In this document: in pieces, positions 17,988 to 33,005 of the stretch
Layout of the letters: each line of letters opens with the position of its first letter
Numbering within the stretch: position 1 is the stretch's first letter
Notes under the pieces: generated by a model
The model's database searches: none
What the model saw: only the letters and a program-made list of their open reading frames with translations
What the model was told of the DNA's origin: nothing
Translations under genes and position numbers: made by a program
IMG/VR virus record: IMGVR_UViG_2734482773_000003
Coordinates: 1 to 43,530 of that record
Length of the DNA stretch: 43,530 bases
Strand: one strand, 5' to 3'
Origin: a virus
Lineage: Duplodnaviria; Heunggongvirae; Uroviricota; Caudoviricetes

Positions 17988-18063
17988 GCTGATTTAGCTC
18001 AGTAGGTAGAGCGCCTGCCTTGTAAGCAGGATGTCGGCGGTTCAACTCCGTCAATCAGCACCA
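17988..18063 (+). tRNA. tRNA-Thr (anticodon UGU)
   Basis: 76-nt cloverleaf folded by hand: 7-bp acceptor stem GCTGATT/AATCAGC, D-arm GCTC/GAGC, anticodon stem CCTGC/GCAGG with loop CTTGTAA (U33, anticodon TGT, A37), T-arm GGCGG/CCGTC with TTCAACT loop, encoded CCA. Confidence 0.8.
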
Positions 18064-25012: not shown

Positions 25013-25528
25013 ATGAGCAGTGTAACTCCGGCAGAAGTCGGTTCATTCTTTTTATCTCTAGTTGTTCCAATCACCACTGGGGTTGTGGCAGCAGGATTTA
25101 CTGCATTTTTCGCTCTGAATCGATTTTACAAAGAAAAATGGTGGGAGAAGAAACATGCTGCGTACAATCAATTAATTGATAAATTATTTGAAATCAAAGC
25201 AATTTATTCCCACGCCTCAGATTTTTACGAGGCTGAATACAATGCTGGTATGTATGATAGGCCGCCGCCGAAAGGGTCTGTTGATTGGAATACATTCCAT
25301 CAAATAAAAGCGCAACTCCATCGGTTTTATGTGCTCGCACCAATCTCTCTAAGCAATAATACAAGGGATTTGCTCAATAATTTCTTCAAGCAGGACGCTG
25401 ATTCCGATCATAGTGTTTACGAAGAGGGTTACCCAGATTTTGTGGCATACAATGATATGACGATTGCGACCCAGCAACTTATTGATGCCATTGTCTTGGA
25501 CGCTGAAAAAGAACTTAAATTTAAATAA
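25013..25528 (+). CDS. AT-rich inserted gene: membrane-anchored protein of unknown function (candidate exclusion/defence protein)
   Basis: 171 aa; AAGGGTGAG upstream; single N-terminal TM helix FFLSLVVPITTGVVAAGFTAFFAL then soluble domain; visibly AT-rich versus flanking head genes; own terminator downstream. Confidence 0.5.
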   Translation: MSSVTPAEVGSFFLSLVVPITTGVVAAGFTAFFALNRFYKEKWWEKKHAAYNQLIDKLFEIKAIYSHASDFYEAEYNAGMYDRPPPKGSVDWNTFHQIKAQLHRFYVLAPISLSNNTRDLLNNFFKQDADSDHSVYEEGYPDFVAYNDMTIATQQLIDAIVLDAEKELKFK

Positions 25529-25597: not shown

Positions 25598-26986
25598 ATG
25601 AAACGCAACCGCGTTAACGTGCTGACCGTCGTCAACTCCGCTTCAAACATCACCACTGAAACCATCGACGGCAAGCCACATATCGTGGTTCGCGGCATCA
25701 CGCCTGTCGTGGACGATATTGTGATGAACCGGAAGTTGTACCCGGCAGCCGAAATCGAAAAGGCCTACAACACACTCGAGCGCAACCCGATGCCGCTGGG
25801 CCATCCGAAAGTGGACGGCAAGCATGTTTCGGCGCGCGATGTCCGGGCGGTGAATGAGTATCACGTCGGGGCATGGCTGCAGAACGTCAGCCACAAAGAC
25901 GGGAAAGTGACGGGCGATATGTACGTTAACCGCCAGTACGCCGAATCCAGCGACAAGGGCAAGCGCCTGATTAACCGTCTGGATGAGATGTTGGCTGGTA
26001 CCAACTCCGACCCGATCCACATCTCAACCGGTCTGCTGTATTCCGGCATCGCCGCCAATGGTGAGTCGAAGGGCAAGAAGTACAACGAGATCGCCACCAA
26101 CATGATGTTTGACCATGTGGCGGTGCTGCTCGATGAGCCTGGCGCGGGTACGCCGGAGGATGGCGTGGGCATCTTCGTTAACTCTGAAGGTGATGAGCAG
26201 CAGATTGAAGTTGCCCGTCTGGCTGATGGCATCGACTGTACCCGAGACGGCCTGCTCAACAAGACCAAATTCTTCTTCACCAATGCCTCTAATTTCTCTT
26301 TCGACGATATCTCCCGCGCTATCAGCGACAAGCTGCGCGAGGGTGACACCGAAGATAAGTGGCTTTGGCCTGAAACGGTGTGGCCGGACAGCTTCATCTA
26401 CCGCAATGACACCAAATACCTGAAACAGAAGTACCTCATCGATGATGACGGCAAGGCCGTGTTCGTCGGCGAACCTGTAGAAGTCGTGCGCAAACCCACT
26501 GAGTACGAGATTAAAACCAACGGAGAGAACGATCCGATGAAAGAACTGATTATCAATGCGCTGCAAGCCGCTGGTAAGCCGACTGAAGGCAAGTCCGACG
26601 CCGAGCTGATGGACGCATACAACCAGATGAAGGCCGAAGAAGCCACCGCCAAGAAAAAAGGCGATGAAGAAATCGACCCGGAAACCGGCAAGCCCAAGAA
26701 AAAAGAGCAGGCCGCCAATAACGAAGAGATGCCAGCGTGGGCGCAGAAACTCGCCGATCGCGTGGACGTCGTTTTCAACAGCCTGAGCGCTAACGCCGAT
26801 AAAGAGAAAGGCGAAAAGCGCGCGGCTGTGAAGCTGGCGATGAACATGAGCGACGACGAAGTCGCGGATCTGGACGGTAAGGCGCTCGACGCCATGTACG
26901 CCAAGTGCCAGACATCTTTCGGCCTGAACGGTGCATTCCGCCATCAGGCAACCAACACCCAATCAGTCAGCGAAATGCCGGAGTAA
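25598..26986 (+). CDS. head scaffolding / prohead-protease-like protein
   Basis: 462 aa, acidic and Lys/Glu-rich C-terminal half typical of scaffolds; located between the morphogenesis gene and the capsid genes; assignment by position and composition. Confidence 0.5.
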   Translation: MKRNRVNVLTVVNSASNITTETIDGKPHIVVRGITPVVDDIVMNRKLYPAAEIEKAYNTLERNPMPLGHPKVDGKHVSARDVRAVNEYHVGAWLQNVSHKDGKVTGDMYVNRQYAESSDKGKRLINRLDEMLAGTNSDPIHISTGLLYSGIAANGESKGKKYNEIATNMMFDHVAVLLDEPGAGTPEDGVGIFVNSEGDEQQIEVARLADGIDCTRDGLLNKTKFFFTNASNFSFDDISRAISDKLREGDTEDKWLWPETVWPDSFIYRNDTKYLKQKYLIDDDGKAVFVGEPVEVVRKPTEYEIKTNGENDPMKELIINALQAAGKPTEGKSDAELMDAYNQMKAEEATAKKKGDEEIDPETGKPKKKEQAANNEEMPAWAQKLADRVDVVFNSLSANADKEKGEKRAAVKLAMNMSDDEVADLDGKALDAMYAKCQTSFGLNGAFRHQATNTQSVSEMPE

Positions 26987-26989
26987 AAA

Positions 26990-27424
26990 ATGGCTAAAGA
27001 CGGAAAGCATATTATCCACGCCGGCGGCGTGTTCCCTAATCCGCTGCTTAACCGCGAAGGCGGGGCGGCTGCATCGACTCTGCCTGGTACTGTTGGCTTC
27101 TTCAGTACTGCTGACAAGTTCACGGCCTCTGTGGTCGGGGCAGAATCCGCCATCAAGTATGTGGCAAACAAAGACTACCTGCGCTGCCTGAGTGTTGATG
27201 ACGCAATCCCAGCCAATGAATTGGTTGTTGGTATTCATCCGCTGCCTGGCATGTTCCTAAATGTGCGAGCAGCAGCGGGCACTTACACCAAAGGCCAGCC
27301 GGTTGCAGTAGCCAACGGTCAGATCACTGCGGTTGTAGATGATGTCGCCGTATTCGCTTATGTCGAAGAAGATAAAGCAGTCACTGCGGTGGCGGGCGAT
27401 CTGATTCGCGTTGTGTTCAAATAA
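26990..27424 (+). CDS. head decoration / capsid accessory protein
   Basis: 144 aa, Gly/Ala/Val-rich beta-type sequence directly upstream of the major capsid gene. Confidence 0.5.
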   Translation: MAKDGKHIIHAGGVFPNPLLNREGGAAASTLPGTVGFFSTADKFTASVVGAESAIKYVANKDYLRCLSVDDAIPANELVVGIHPLPGMFLNVRAAAGTYTKGQPVAVANGQITAVVDDVAVFAYVEEDKAVTAVAGDLIRVVFK

Positions 27425-27434
27425 GGAGCACTGA

Positions 27435-28532
27435 ATGTTTGTATTCTCCAAGTCTATCGGCGAGAAGACCGGTAACCTCGCGGTAAACCAGGCGCAATGG
27501 CGCGCTCTCGAACTTGAGCGAAACGCCAGTGCTCAGGCAGCAGCTGATTTTCTGGCGCGCACTCAGTTCCGTGGTGATGCAGAAAACGCCCCTTATCTCG
27601 ACGCGGTGAACGCAGTTGACGATATCCGCCGCCTGTATCGCGCTTTCGACACAACTGTGCTTCAGCAGTTCGAGCCAAATACCGAATTCACCCTGCTGAA
27701 CGATCTGATGCCGCTCTCTCGCTCCGTGCGAATTGAGCAGTCTCGTTACGATTACGCTCGTACCGGCGGCCGCGGCTGGGCTCATACTTCCATGTCCGGT
27801 CAGGTTGGTGCGGCGCTGGATGCTCGCAGCTATTCCTTCGATGGCACCATGGTACCTATTCACGACTCGGGCTTTAAGTTCGAATGGCGTGATCCAATCT
27901 TCAACAGCCCACAGGCATTGCAGTCGCAGGCTGATGCGCAGCGTGGTTCGGTTGAAGACGTTCAGCGTCGTTACGTTGACTACATCTTCAACGGCTTCCG
28001 CGACAAAGCTGGCAACTTCGCAGTGTTTGACGGTCTGACCTGGAAAGGGTTGCGTGACGATGAGCGCGTAGCGCAGATCGACCTTGGCGCTTCAGGCCTG
28101 AACATCGATTTTACCTCTGGCACAGCAACGTCTCAGGACATCCGCGCCGGGGCAATCGTGCTTCGTGATCAGATGCGTCGCGTAAACAACCAGTATGCAG
28201 AGCAGACCTGGTATGTATCCGGCGAAATCATCTCCAACCTGGAACGCTACTTCTCCGACAACTTCCAGTCCGGAACGATCATGGATGAAATCCTGAAGCT
28301 GACCGGTGTAGCGGCGATTAAAGAAGACAGCCAACTGTCAGGTAACGAAATCGTCATCGTTCCACTGAGTGCAGGTGTCATTGCTCCAATCGTCGGCCAG
28401 GCTATCGGTACCGTTGCATCTCCGCGTCCTGAGTACAACAGCGACTACATCTGGCGCACCTGGGGTGCAATGGGGTTGATGGTCAAGCAGGACATCAACA
28501 ACAAATACTCCGTAATTCACGCATCAAGCTAA
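27435..28532 (+). CDS. major capsid protein
   Basis: 365 aa, position after scaffold/decoration genes; GGAG upstream; assignment by size and position. Confidence 0.65.
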   Translation: MFVFSKSIGEKTGNLAVNQAQWRALELERNASAQAAADFLARTQFRGDAENAPYLDAVNAVDDIRRLYRAFDTTVLQQFEPNTEFTLLNDLMPLSRSVRIEQSRYDYARTGGRGWAHTSMSGQVGAALDARSYSFDGTMVPIHDSGFKFEWRDPIFNSPQALQSQADAQRGSVEDVQRRYVDYIFNGFRDKAGNFAVFDGLTWKGLRDDERVAQIDLGASGLNIDFTSGTATSQDIRAGAIVLRDQMRRVNNQYAEQTWYVSGEIISNLERYFSDNFQSGTIMDEILKLTGVAAIKEDSQLSGNEIVIVPLSAGVIAPIVGQAIGTVASPRPEYNSDYIWRTWGAMGLMVKQDINNKYSVIHASS

Positions 28533-28541
28533 GGATAAATC

Positions 28542-28907
28542 ATGGCACTGGTAGAAATCGTGGCAAGTAACCTGCACGCCGGTGCCAATCTCCGCAAACT
28601 GGAGGTTGGTTCGGTGGTGGATGTTGACGACGCAACGGCTGAGCGCTGGATCAGCGCTGGCAAGGCGAAGCAAACCGACAAGAAGAAAGGCGAGAAGCTT
28701 ACCTTCGAAGTGGCAACTCCGTCCGCGCAGGCGGCAGACCTTTCTGGCCTGCAAAAGCAACTCGCCGACGCGCTGGAGCAGAACCAAAAGCTAATCGCCG
28801 ATGGTGAAGCAAAAGACAAGGCTCACGCCGACGCACTGGCAGCAGAAACAAAACGCGCTGACGAAGCCGAAGCGGCATTGGCGGAAGCAACCAAGAAGGC
28901 GAAATAA
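28542..28907 (+). CDS. hypothetical head-associated protein (coiled-coil C-terminus)
   Basis: ATG 28542 with AAGGA upstream; Ala/Lys/Glu-rich C-terminus. Confidence 0.45.
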   Translation: MALVEIVASNLHAGANLRKLEVGSVVDVDDATAERWISAGKAKQTDKKKGEKLTFEVATPSAQAADLSGLQKQLADALEQNQKLIADGEAKDKAHADALAAETKRADEAEAALAEATKKAK

Positions 28908-28909
28908 CC

Positions 28910-29290
28910 ATGGCTGACCCAATCACAGCGGCAGACGTGCAGGCGTACCTCGGTGAATTGGGTTACACCATTCCCATGGCGTTGCTGGATCCAATTCTCT
29001 GCGCGGTCAACAAAATTATCCCGTGCCTCGATGGTGCGGGGTATGACGAGTGCACTGCAAAGCTGATTCTGATGTACGCCGCCGCGCTTATGGCTACGTC
29101 GTCTGGTGCGCGCCGCATCAAATCACAGGGTGCGCCGTCTGGCGCGTCCCGCTCGTTTGAATATGGTGACGACAGCATTACCTGGCTGCGCGACTCGTTG
29201 GCTCGTCTCGATACCAGCGGATGCACCGGTGAGTTACCGATCAGCGCTGGTAATAGTGTCGGCCTGTTCATGGTGGTCGGGGGCTGCTGA
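28910..29290 (+). CDS. putative head-tail connector protein
   Basis: position between capsid and tail genes; begins 3 nt after the previous stop. Confidence 0.45.
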   Translation: MADPITAADVQAYLGELGYTIPMALLDPILCAVNKIIPCLDGAGYDECTAKLILMYAAALMATSSGARRIKSQGAPSGASRSFEYGDDSITWLRDSLARLDTSGCTGELPISAGNSVGLFMVVGGC

Positions 29291-29463
29291 TGACGTACAA
29301 ATCAGTTAAGCACGGCCTGCCGCGCTCATTCACCCGCGTCTGGGTGATGACCGACACAGGGCGGGAGACAACCGGTTACGTTAAGTCGGACGGCGAGTGG
29401 TTCATCAACTGCCCGCGCATCCGGGCGACTGGCGCCGCTGTGCTGCGATGGAGGGATGACTGA
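29290..29463 (+). CDS. small translationally coupled protein (57 aa)
   Basis: not in the ORF table; ATG 29290 overlaps the upstream stop (TGATG) and its stop overlaps the next ATG at 29463; MTYKSVKHGLPRSFTRVWVMTDTGRETTGYVKSDGEWFINCPRIRATGAAVLRWRDD. Confidence 0.4.
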   Translation: MTYKSVKHGLPRSFTRVWVMTDTGRETTGYVKSDGEWFINCPRIRATGAAVLRWRDD

Positions 29464-29810
29464 TGTCGTCAACCGCTAATTGGTCATACACCGCGACGGC
29501 GACAATCTGGCGCAATCTCGGTAACGATGAATACGGTGACTCGCTCGGCTTCTCTGCCCCTGAGTCGATTCTCTGTGATTACGAAGGTGGCCTGTCAAAG
29601 CGCATCGGCAATATCGGATCTGAAATCGTCGTGAAGAATACCGTTTGGACTGAGTATGCACTGGCAGCGGCGGGTGATTACCTGCTGATTGGCCAGTCAA
29701 CCGAATCCGATCCGGTTGTCGCCGGAGCAGACGAGGTGCGGCAGGTTATCCGCTACGCCGACACGTTCGAGCGCCTAGTGGATGATTACGCCATCCTGAC
29801 GGGGGTGTAG
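29463..29810 (+). CDS. putative head-tail adaptor / head closure protein
   Basis: 115 aa, translationally coupled within the head-tail joining gene block. Confidence 0.45.
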   Translation: MSSTANWSYTATATIWRNLGNDEYGDSLGFSAPESILCDYEGGLSKRIGNIGSEIVVKNTVWTEYALAAAGDYLLIGQSTESDPVVAGADEVRQVIRYADTFERLVDDYAILTGV

Positions 29811-29812
29811 CC

Positions 29813-30277
29813 ATGGGCATCAAAGTGAAGGGCGTTAGCCAGGCGAAAAAGCACCTGAACGATGTCATCAACGACGTGAAGTGGCGCAAGGTGATTCGCG
29901 CGCTGCAGTCGGCGATGATTCTCATCGGGGCACGGGCAGCCTATTACACCCCGATCGACACCTCTACGCTGATTAACAGCCAGTTTCGCGAAATTGACGC
30001 TGGCGGCGTGTTCATCACCGGGCGCATCGGTTACTCAGCAAACTATGCCGCGTACGTTCATGAGGCGTCAGGCAAGCTGAAAGGTCAGCCGCGCGCGCAC
30101 TTTGGTATAACCAGCAACCGATCTGAGTTCGGTCCGCAGAAACCGAAAGAGTTCGGCGGCGGCACCGGAAAGGGCAACTACTGGGATCCGCACGGTGAAC
30201 CGCAATTCCTGACCAAAGGCGCGAATGATGAGCGCGATAACGTTGATGCGGTGATGCGCAAGGAGCTTTCGCTATGA
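29813..30277 (+). CDS. HK97 gp10-like tail-component protein
   Basis: 154 aa; MGIKVKGVSQAKKHLNDV... resembles the HK97 gp10 family (from memory); position in head-tail joining block. Confidence 0.55.
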   Translation: MGIKVKGVSQAKKHLNDVINDVKWRKVIRALQSAMILIGARAAYYTPIDTSTLINSQFREIDAGGVFITGRIGYSANYAAYVHEASGKLKGQPRAHFGITSNRSEFGPQKPKEFGGGTGKGNYWDPHGEPQFLTKGANDERDNVDAVMRKELSL

Positions 30278-30657
30278 CACCCATGATGCACGAGCGGGTG
30301 CGCAACATGTTCGGCGACGCCGGGCTAACTACCGGTTTCACGGTGCAGCAGCTGATGTACGACGACCCGGGAGACCTGTCGAAGGCGATCATGGTGTTCA
30401 GGCCTAACGGCGGGTCGTATATTCGGACTGACCTCGGCTCTGAGTATCACGTCCTGGTCGACGTCGTAGGCGCAAAAGATAAGCGCAAAGACGCACTCAA
30501 TGCCGTACAGCGCATCGTCGATTACGTCCAGGCCAACCCCATGGCTGACGAGTGCGTCGGCTACATCCAGAACATGGGCGCAATTCCCGCGCCGGTGCTC
30601 ACAGAAGAAGGGCGAATAGTCTTCAGACTCCAGTTCGCCTGCACTTACGGCGAATAG
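30274..30657 (+). CDS. putative tail completion / tail terminator protein
   Basis: 127 aa, start overlaps the previous stop; last gene before the terminator and major tail gene. Confidence 0.45.
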   Translation: MTPMMHERVRNMFGDAGLTTGFTVQQLMYDDPGDLSKAIMVFRPNGGSYIRTDLGSEYHVLVDVVGAKDKRKDALNAVQRIVDYVQANPMADECVGYIQNMGAIPAPVLTEEGRIVFRLQFACTYGE

Positions 30658-30674
30658 CCATCCCAACCAAATAA

Positions 30675-30699
30675 CCCGCTTCGGCGGGTTTTCTTTTTA
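30675..30699 (+). terminator. intrinsic terminator/attenuator before the major tail gene
   Basis: hairpin acccgc-ttcg-gcgggt 30675..30690 followed by tttctttttat. Confidence 0.55.
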
Positions 30700-32372: not shown

Positions 32373-33005
32373 ATGGAAAGACAGTACGCAGTACTTCTTG
32401 ACGCAGGGTTCTTGCGCCGAAAATTAGGTACTCAGGCAGCACCAATGACAGCTCAAAATGTCGAAGATTTAGTTAATAAAATTAAAGCACGAGCTGAGTT
32501 ATTAGGGATGCGGTTGTATCGTGTGTTTTATTACGACGCTGAGCCTTTCACGGGTACTAAGACACATCCTATATCCAACGCTGTTATTAACTTTGGCGCT
32601 ACACAAATGGCCATTGATTGTAATACATTGTTAGATGAGCTTAAGGTCAAGCCTTTTTTTGCTGTGCGCCTAGGGGAACTCAATTTTAGAGGGTGGAAGG
32701 TTTCTGATGCTGCTCTTCAGTCAGGTGCAGGAGGGACGGCAACAATTAATGCTCATAATGTTTCTCCCAATCTTCAGCAGAAAGGTGTGGATATGAGGAT
32801 CGCATTAGATATCTCATCTATGACTTTAAAAAACCAAGCAGACGTTTTTTGCTTGGTAACAGGTGACTCAGATTTTGCACCCATCATCAAATTTGCGAGA
32901 TCTGAAGGAAAGCAAGTATTCACTTATACTCTCGGTCATAGAGTCAAACCATCTTTGCCTATTCATTCTGACCTCCATATCCCTGAAACGTACGCTAATT
33001 TGTAA
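32373..33005 (+). CDS. AT-rich inserted gene: NYN/LabA-like (PIN-fold) nuclease-domain protein
   Basis: 210 aa; motifs AVLLDAGFL, KGVDMRIALD and LVTGDSDFAPIIKFARSEGKQV match the NYN/LabA acidic-residue signature (from memory); visibly AT-rich; flanked by its own promoter and terminator inside the tail module. Confidence 0.6.
   Translation: MERQYAVLLDAGFLRRKLGTQAAPMTAQNVEDLVNKIKARAELLGMRLYRVFYYDAEPFTGTKTHPISNAVINFGATQMAIDCNTLLDELKVKPFFAVRLGELNFRGWKVSDAALQSGAGGTATINAHNVSPNLQQKGVDMRIALDISSMTLKNQADVFCLVTGDSDFAPIIKFARSEGKQVFTYTLGHRVKPSLPIHSDLHIPETYANL

Follow-up and report, generated by a model that had tools for sequence, protein, structure and literature searches.

Does the short interval between the adaptor gene and the next gene in the neck operon of an enterobacterial siphovirus hold a gene of its own, and what might its product do there? 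The question was raised by the window analysed here, the whole stretch of 43,530 nucleotides of IMG/VR virus record IMGVR_UViG_2734482773_000003, in which an earlier note had pointed to a 57-codon open reading frame (ORF) joined by TGATG to the genes on both sides.

An ORF that overlaps both of its neighbours

Enterobacter phages ENT1 and BHUENT3/6 match the late region of the window with 87% identity over 60% of its length, and the window represents a temperate siphovirus or prophage of the ES18 type from Enterobacteriaceae. Its morphogenesis genes follow one another in the order Mu-F-like, low-GC ORF, DUF2213, decoration, DUF6260 capsid, 121-aa and DUF7370 genes. The small gene comes next, followed by the genes for a PHROG 797 protein, an HK97 gp10-like Neck1 protein, the tail terminator and the Big_2 major tail protein, and then by the DUF6246 chaperone gene, an NYN-domain gene and the tape measure protein gene. 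The features of the small gene and its surroundings are the following.

28910..29290, plus strand: upstream neighbour, 126-aa DUF7370 / PHROG 786 protein, HK97 gp6-like head-to-tail adaptor by fold
29279..29283, plus strand: putative Shine-Dalgarno-like GGGGG, 6 nt 5' of the small-gene ATG
29288..29292, plus strand: 5' junction TGATG, in which the adaptor-gene stop and the small-gene start have A29290 in common
29290..29463, plus strand: small-gene CDS, 57 codons and stop, full-length PHROG 1261 match
29450..29455, plus strand: putative Shine-Dalgarno-like GGAGGG, 7 nt 5' of ATG 29463
29461..29465, plus strand: 3' junction TGATG, in which the small-gene stop and the start of the 115-aa gene have A29463 in common
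29463..29810, plus strand: downstream neighbour, 115-aa PHROG 797 protein, presumed head-closure/stopper

The ORF starts with ATG 29290-29292, contains 57 sense codons and ends in TGA 29461-29463. The upstream ORF (28910-29290) terminates in TGA 29288-29290 and the downstream ORF begins with ATG 29463-29465, so that the TGATG described for both junctions is borne out by the sequence. The small gene also fits the tight packing of the module, as had been proposed. When it is omitted a gap of 172 bp is left, while every other gap from 26986 to 30657 measures -4 to +10 bp. The 115-aa product is presumed from gene order to be the head-closure or stopper protein, and its homologue in phage mEp021 is labelled virion structural protein.

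Both putative ribosome binding sites are embedded in coding sequence. GGGGG at 29279..29283 lies within the conserved C-terminal Gly-Gly codons of the adaptor gene, where relatives have GGAGG or GGTGG. GGAGGG at 29450..29455 lies within the small-gene codons W54-R55-D56, and TGGAGGGA or TGGAAGGAGGG is kept in relatives at this Shine-Dalgarno-like site of the next gene. The overlaps themselves are also kept. By a nearest-stop and nearest-ATG classification of 54 loci, in which the gene calls were not all individually checked, a 1-nt or 4-nt overlap is found at the 5' junction in ~50 loci, and at the 3' junction the next ATG is overlapped in ~46. The start and stop overlaps of the small gene are retained even where the neighbour is a different gene. 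On the plus strand around the ORF, no promoter-like or terminator-like sites beyond chance were found.

Several other elements of the window were recorded. A gene at 32373-33005 (plus strand, 210 aa), which follows the DUF6246 tail-assembly-chaperone-like gene and precedes that of the tape measure protein, has 41.7% GC compared to ~56% in its neighbours and an atypical codon usage. Its product contains an NYN domain of the LabA-like nuclease type (PF01936, E 1e-12), and PADLOC matches it weakly to HEC-09 and NYN. It looks like a classical moron and is possibly defence-related. A 171-aa ORF at 25013-25528 (plus strand; 39.7% GC, atypical codon usage), between the Mu-F-like head gene and the DUF2213 gene, is likely a second moron in the head module; it had no match in Pfam or PADLOC. 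A tRNA-Thr gene (anticodon TGT) is located at 17988-18063 (plus strand) upstream of the lysis/terminase region. A sub-threshold Rfam rsmX match at 30568-30694 (plus strand; 25 bits, where the gathering score is 56; E 0.06) is probably due to chance. It includes the 3' end of the tail terminator gene together with the 63-bp spacer that precedes the major tail gene.

The small ORF is a gene under purifying selection

An open frame of 57 codons is in itself weak evidence for a gene, because at the stop-codon frequency of the window it is expected by chance with a probability of ~0.11 per random frame; the excess over chance is shown by conservation. One genome per species was scanned, which yielded 49 related enterobacterial loci from ~25 genera with 53-95% identity. 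The small-gene frame is open in 48 of the 49 loci, while any other frame is open in 15 at most. The median pairwise dN/dS was 0.19 in the small-gene frame compared to 1.5 and 2.1 in two shifted frames. Likewise, the entropy of the small-gene alignment is concentrated at third codon positions (63.7 bits, versus 32.0 and 23.4 bits at positions 1 and 2). The frame conservation among relatives that had been suggested as a check is thus present. Two of the 49 loci appear damaged: L013 has CTG in place of the start codon, and in L036 the frame is cut short by a premature stop near codon 49.

Further support is provided by composition and by homologues. The GC3 of the small gene is 0.78, and its codon usage scores as high as that of the neighbouring late genes. 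Its translation matches phrog_1261 with an E value of 2.1e-34, residues 1-57 aligning to profile positions 1-57 of 57. Homologues of 55-59 aa form 163 clusters from Enterobacteriaceae genomes, prophages and phages; the best cluster is 95% identical and represents 1283 member sequences. The small ORF is therefore a real coding gene under purifying selection, and the earlier call was correct. The finding is an ordinary one, as the gene family is already contained in PHROGs, GenBank and RefSeq; the window copy is an additional member with no assigned function.

The product is related to the DUF551 superfamily

The small protein has 57 residues (6.6 kDa, pI 9.85), is basic and consists of a single domain. 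An AF2 model predicts a small SH3/Tudor-like beta-barrel with a pLDDT of 95. The window protein carries all residues that are invariant in a 116-sequence alignment of the family (W18, T21, W37, I39, V51 and W54). Its N-terminal pattern M-x-W-I-S-V-x-x-R-L-P ... V-W-V ... G-Y-V-x-x-D-G-E-W recalls DUF551. A Pfam search of the 57-aa protein at E <= 10 gave no match, the DUF551 model (PF04448) included, which places any relation to DUF551 at the superfamily level. NCBIfam and PDB-chain sequence searches of the protein returned nothing meaningful.

More sensitive comparisons all point to DUF551. An exhaustive search of 1.8 billion representatives with the family profile found only ~15 true family clusters, together with weak full-length matches (E ~1e-4) inside the longer proteins P0142 and P0146. 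Exactly at the matched positions of these two proteins Pfam places PF04448, with E values of 6e-14 and 6e-10. Comparison of the small family with a DUF551-domain alignment by hhalign gave a probability of 97.9% (E 4e-13, residues 2-41), and an HMM built from our DUF551-domain alignment matched the small ORF alone among the six-frame ORFs of the window (E 1.5e-6); for both results the alignment was seeded from the DUF551 subfamily nearest to the query. In a Foldseek search of BFVD, which compares predicted structures only, most of the top 20 hits were named DUF551 (prob 1.00, TMq 0.73-0.81, E 7e-3 to 7e-2). A search for a solved DUF551 structure found none. RefSeq uses the name 'DUF551 domain-containing protein' for 50%-identical homologues in ES18 (gene 12), SPN3UB and Oslo. 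The C-terminus does not follow the (V)THWMPLP motif: the DUF551 alignment consensus ends in VTHWMPLPxPP, while the small family ends in VLRW[KR][ED] and has only the Trp in common. As judged from profile comparison and predicted fold, the small protein is a minimal, free-standing and remote member of the DUF551 superfamily. DUF551 has been described as a portable domain without assigned function, occurring in YfdS, an Ea22 variant and other fusions, and these other DUF551 proteins have been placed in early or accessory regions rather than virions (PMC10834534, PMC4776307).

A hairpin of the small protein, RETTGYVKSDGEWFI (window 29362-29406, residues 25-39), resembles the T4 fibritin foldon, RDGQAYVRKDGEWVL (E 0.07-2), and also the GYIKSDG repeats of beta-flower proteins found by profile search. 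Homology to the foldon was considered and rejected, since the matches in PDB were 15-residue profile matches without significance that reflect a common hairpin motif. The likeness is probably a convergent beta-hairpin motif.

A fixed slot with sporadic occupancy

Every family member examined is located between the DUF7370 gene and a gene of 115-127 aa. This sample consisted of 47 full genome loci, ES18, mEp515 and the most divergent members P0135, P0129 and P0134, which derive from unrelated metagenomes, are ~30-45% identical and occupy the same slot. Presence in the slot is sporadic. In the phage collection the small gene was found in 41 records, compared to 300 for DUF7370 and 253 for the 115-aa gene. 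In Mannheimia phage 587AP2 and Salmonella phage LPST10 (Skatevirus) the adaptor and 115-aa genes overlap directly. Cronobacter phage ENT47670 carries an unrelated 90-codon ORF in the slot, overlapped at both ends, and Klebsiella phage VLCpiS13e a 44-codon ORF. The adaptor/stopper junction is a recurrent slot for small accessory genes.

In relatives, the interval from adaptor to stopper is also a hotspot for insertions. Upstream of the small gene the inserts are HNH endonucleases (168-181 aa) or a 93-94-aa ORF; downstream of it they are a Cys-rich DUF6527 protein (105-108 aa) or ORFs of 77 or 112 aa. The loci concerned, with coordinates within each locus where assigned, are listed here.

L005, 2450-2956
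L015, 645-1190
L006, 3159-3485
L035, L044 and L045
L003, 3167-3400
L039, 3168-3506
L020, 477-761
L046, 2723-3004

In L013 (3159-3335) and L034 (3159-3323) the small gene is followed by a 54-58-aa ORF with ...VTVVLRWKEG at its end, which resembles a second small-gene C-terminus, as if an insertion had split and duplicated the 3' end.

The small gene has a recombination history separate from that of either neighbour. Compared to the window, adaptor, small protein and 115-aa protein are 39, 95 and 77% identical in L003 and 92, 66 and 62% identical in L038, and one N-terminal variant of the small protein is combined with adaptors that have only 35-41% identity among themselves. This lack of co-variation makes a tight physical partnership with one of the neighbours less probable. 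The proposal that the small gene is the best-conserved gene of the block was discarded: its mean identity is 77.5% compared to 74% and 72% for its neighbours, in loci that had been chosen through the small gene itself, and it ranks first in only 4 of 32.

Annotation of the block varies between relatives. In L002 (NC_071003.1, Enterobacter phage CobraSix, 8204-9528) RefSeq shows five mutually overlapping CDSs, gp11-gp15. In CobraSix the counterpart of the 115-aa gene bears the label 'tail length tape measure protein', which is also found in Erwinia phage Midgardsormr38; these annotations are likely mis-calls or mis-names. In L058 (MH706966.1, phage mEp021, 34412-34591) the small-gene homologue is unannotated and falls into a gap between mEp021_57 and mEp021_58, and in the sister phage mEp515 the homologue is annotated as mEp515_77.

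A possible role in head completion

We consider it likely that this genuine late gene encodes a DUF551-like barrel that is a lineage-specific accessory of head completion and does not belong to the core of the connector. Homologous adaptor and stopper genes occur in many phages in which the small gene is missing or replaced by another one, which argues for a lineage-specific accessory rather than a core component. The small protein would be translated from the morphogenesis mRNA by coupling, having no promoter, terminator or spacer of its own. Its start would consist of the ATG overlapping the adaptor stop and the G-rich Shine-Dalgarno site in the last adaptor codons. In turn, the last codons of the small gene would hold the Shine-Dalgarno site of the next gene, whose ATG overlaps the small-gene stop. 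With coupled translation, the small protein is expected to be made late, simultaneously with the neck proteins and in similar amounts. Its function may be that of a small binding module, at the time of head completion or shortly thereafter, and candidate partners are those conserved across head and tail types, for example the adaptor/stopper surface, the portal or a DNA end. We tentatively suggest a more specific version of this role, which we hold to be possible rather than probable. A branch of DUF551 might have come to serve the siphovirus neck as an assembly factor or a small accessory subunit, made in step with adaptor and stopper and binding a conserved surface or DNA end at head completion.

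Published work on this point is sparse. For mEp021, the sole virion proteomics set with a homologue (PMC11893012), bands were cut from a 10% gel, and the small ORF, being missing from the mEp021 GenBank record, was possibly not searchable in these data. A literature search on DUF7370, DUF6260 and phrog_1261 found nothing relevant, and the ES18 / HepS paper deals with the J tail tip and not with gp12. 80alpha gp44 was considered as a precedent and dropped, since the place of its gene in the connector block was not confirmed.

The main rival to a head-completion accessory is late-expressed cargo, i.e. a host-directed or anti-defence binding module that occupies a permissive slot of the late operon and has no part in assembly. 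The sporadic distribution relative to the neighbours would agree with cargo, as would a slot whose edges form an insertion hotspot with unrelated small ORFs, HNH endonucleases and DUF6527 genes in other phages, and the independent recombination of the small gene. DUF551 is moreover a portable domain that is fused to diverse early or accessory proteins (PMC10834534). However, the GC content and codon usage of the small gene are native, and it lacks a promoter or terminator of its own; in this it stands apart from the two low-GC morons of the window. The family was found in no other slot even at ~30-45% identity, and a PADLOC search of the small protein gave no match. We regard cargo as possible but not probable.

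If the protein were instead an essential connector subunit, forming an extra ring between adaptor and stopper, its invariant position between the adaptor and the presumed stopper and its coupling at both ends to structural genes would be readily explained. We nevertheless regard such a role as unlikely. Homologous adaptor and stopper proteins function without the small gene in Mannheimia phages and in Skatevirus LPST10, and it is missing from most of the 250-300 phage records that carry the adaptor or stopper genes. The small protein has no fold similarity to known (solved) neck proteins and does not co-vary with its neighbours, and the gene appears damaged in two of the 49 loci (the CTG start of L013 and the premature stop of L036).

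Far less probable still is that the ORF yields no independent protein and serves as a C-terminal extension of the adaptor through programmed frameshifting. Such an extension would fit the offset between the small-gene and adaptor frames, the run of five G residues 7-11 nt before the junction and a few database proteins in which adaptor and small protein are fused (P0005, P0126). However, the G-run is not conserved, as relatives have GGAGG or GGTGG in its place, and a canonical slippery heptamer is missing. The ATG with its Shine-Dalgarno-like site is conserved, and the start of the small gene is retained also in loci where its upstream neighbour is not the adaptor gene but, for example, an HNH endonuclease gene or a 93-aa ORF. 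The fused database proteins have the appearance of sequencing frameshifts.

A chance ORF in a non-coding spacer, which the ~0.11 probability of an open 57-codon frame might have allowed, or a cis-acting RNA or DNA element is refuted by the dN/dS of 0.19, the coding-like third-position pattern, the frame open in 48 of 49 loci across ~25 genera and the confidently predicted fold, with no Rfam family matched over the ORF and a minus-strand terminator-like hairpin at the small ORF no better than chance level. Equally refuted is the identity as 50S ribosomal protein L13: this name is borne by many homologues in GenBank, NCBI nr and UniRef (e.g. MK448231.1 QBP28398.1), but the gene is located in a phage neck operon, the protein has 57 aa while bacterial L13 has ~140 aa, Pfam (E <= 10, the L13 family included) and NCBIfam gave no L13 match, and no PDB chain, many ribosomes included, was matched by sequence or profile, so that the label is a propagated mis-annotation.

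For annotators, these results mean that the small gene should be called rather than a 172-bp gap left, and we propose the name 'DUF551-like protein (ES18 gp12 family)' in place of '50S ribosomal protein L13'. The practical value is modest. A minimal DUF551-type barrel appears to be kept in a fixed neck-operon slot across many enterobacterial temperate phages, which would make ES18 gene 12 a convenient entry point to the binding partners of DUF551. If recruitment to the neck is true, ES18 gp12 would be the first tractable functional handle on DUF551, a domain with >6000 homologue clusters.

Comparison with known systems

The window gene belongs to the ES18 gp12 family (PHROG 1261), members of which are ES18 gene 12 (YP_224150.1), QBP28398.1 of Klebsiella phage ST101-KPC2phi6.1 and mEp515_77. 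It shares with this family (56-61 aa) the slot and the overlapping junctions, and nothing essential is different. ES18 gp12 and the window copy have 50% identity, and copies in Enterobacter prophages and phages reach 93-95% identity to the latter.

With Pfam DUF551, as in YfdS of E. coli CPS-53 and the C-terminal domain of the Ea22 V2 variant, the small protein has in common the N-terminal W-I-S-V..R-L-P, the V-x-V, a G-rich hairpin, the G-x-W, the predicted fold and the phage-borne origin. It differs in being free-standing, not fused to an N-terminal domain, and in having V-L-R-W-[KR]-[ED] in place of T-H-W-M-P-L-P. Moreover, while DUF551 genes are found in early or accessory regions (PMC10834534, PMC4776307), the small gene is located in the neck block and coupled to structural genes.

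Phage morons resemble the small gene in their sporadic distribution, in a slot that can hold different small genes and in recombination independent of the neighbours. The own promoter or terminator and the atypical composition by which morons are recognised are missing here: GC content and codon usage show no anomaly, and the position is strictly fixed. In this the small gene is unlike the real morons of the window (25013-25528 and 32373-33005), which have ~40% GC. A core connector gene would be expected in every phage that carries the module; the small gene differs in this, being found in only 41 records while its neighbours are found in 300 and 253.

The gpW protein of phage lambda is a late head-completion protein of 68 aa, the gene of which lies at the head/tail boundary and adjoins head-tail joining genes. 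Like gpW, the small protein is a very small late product encoded beside the genes for head-tail joining.
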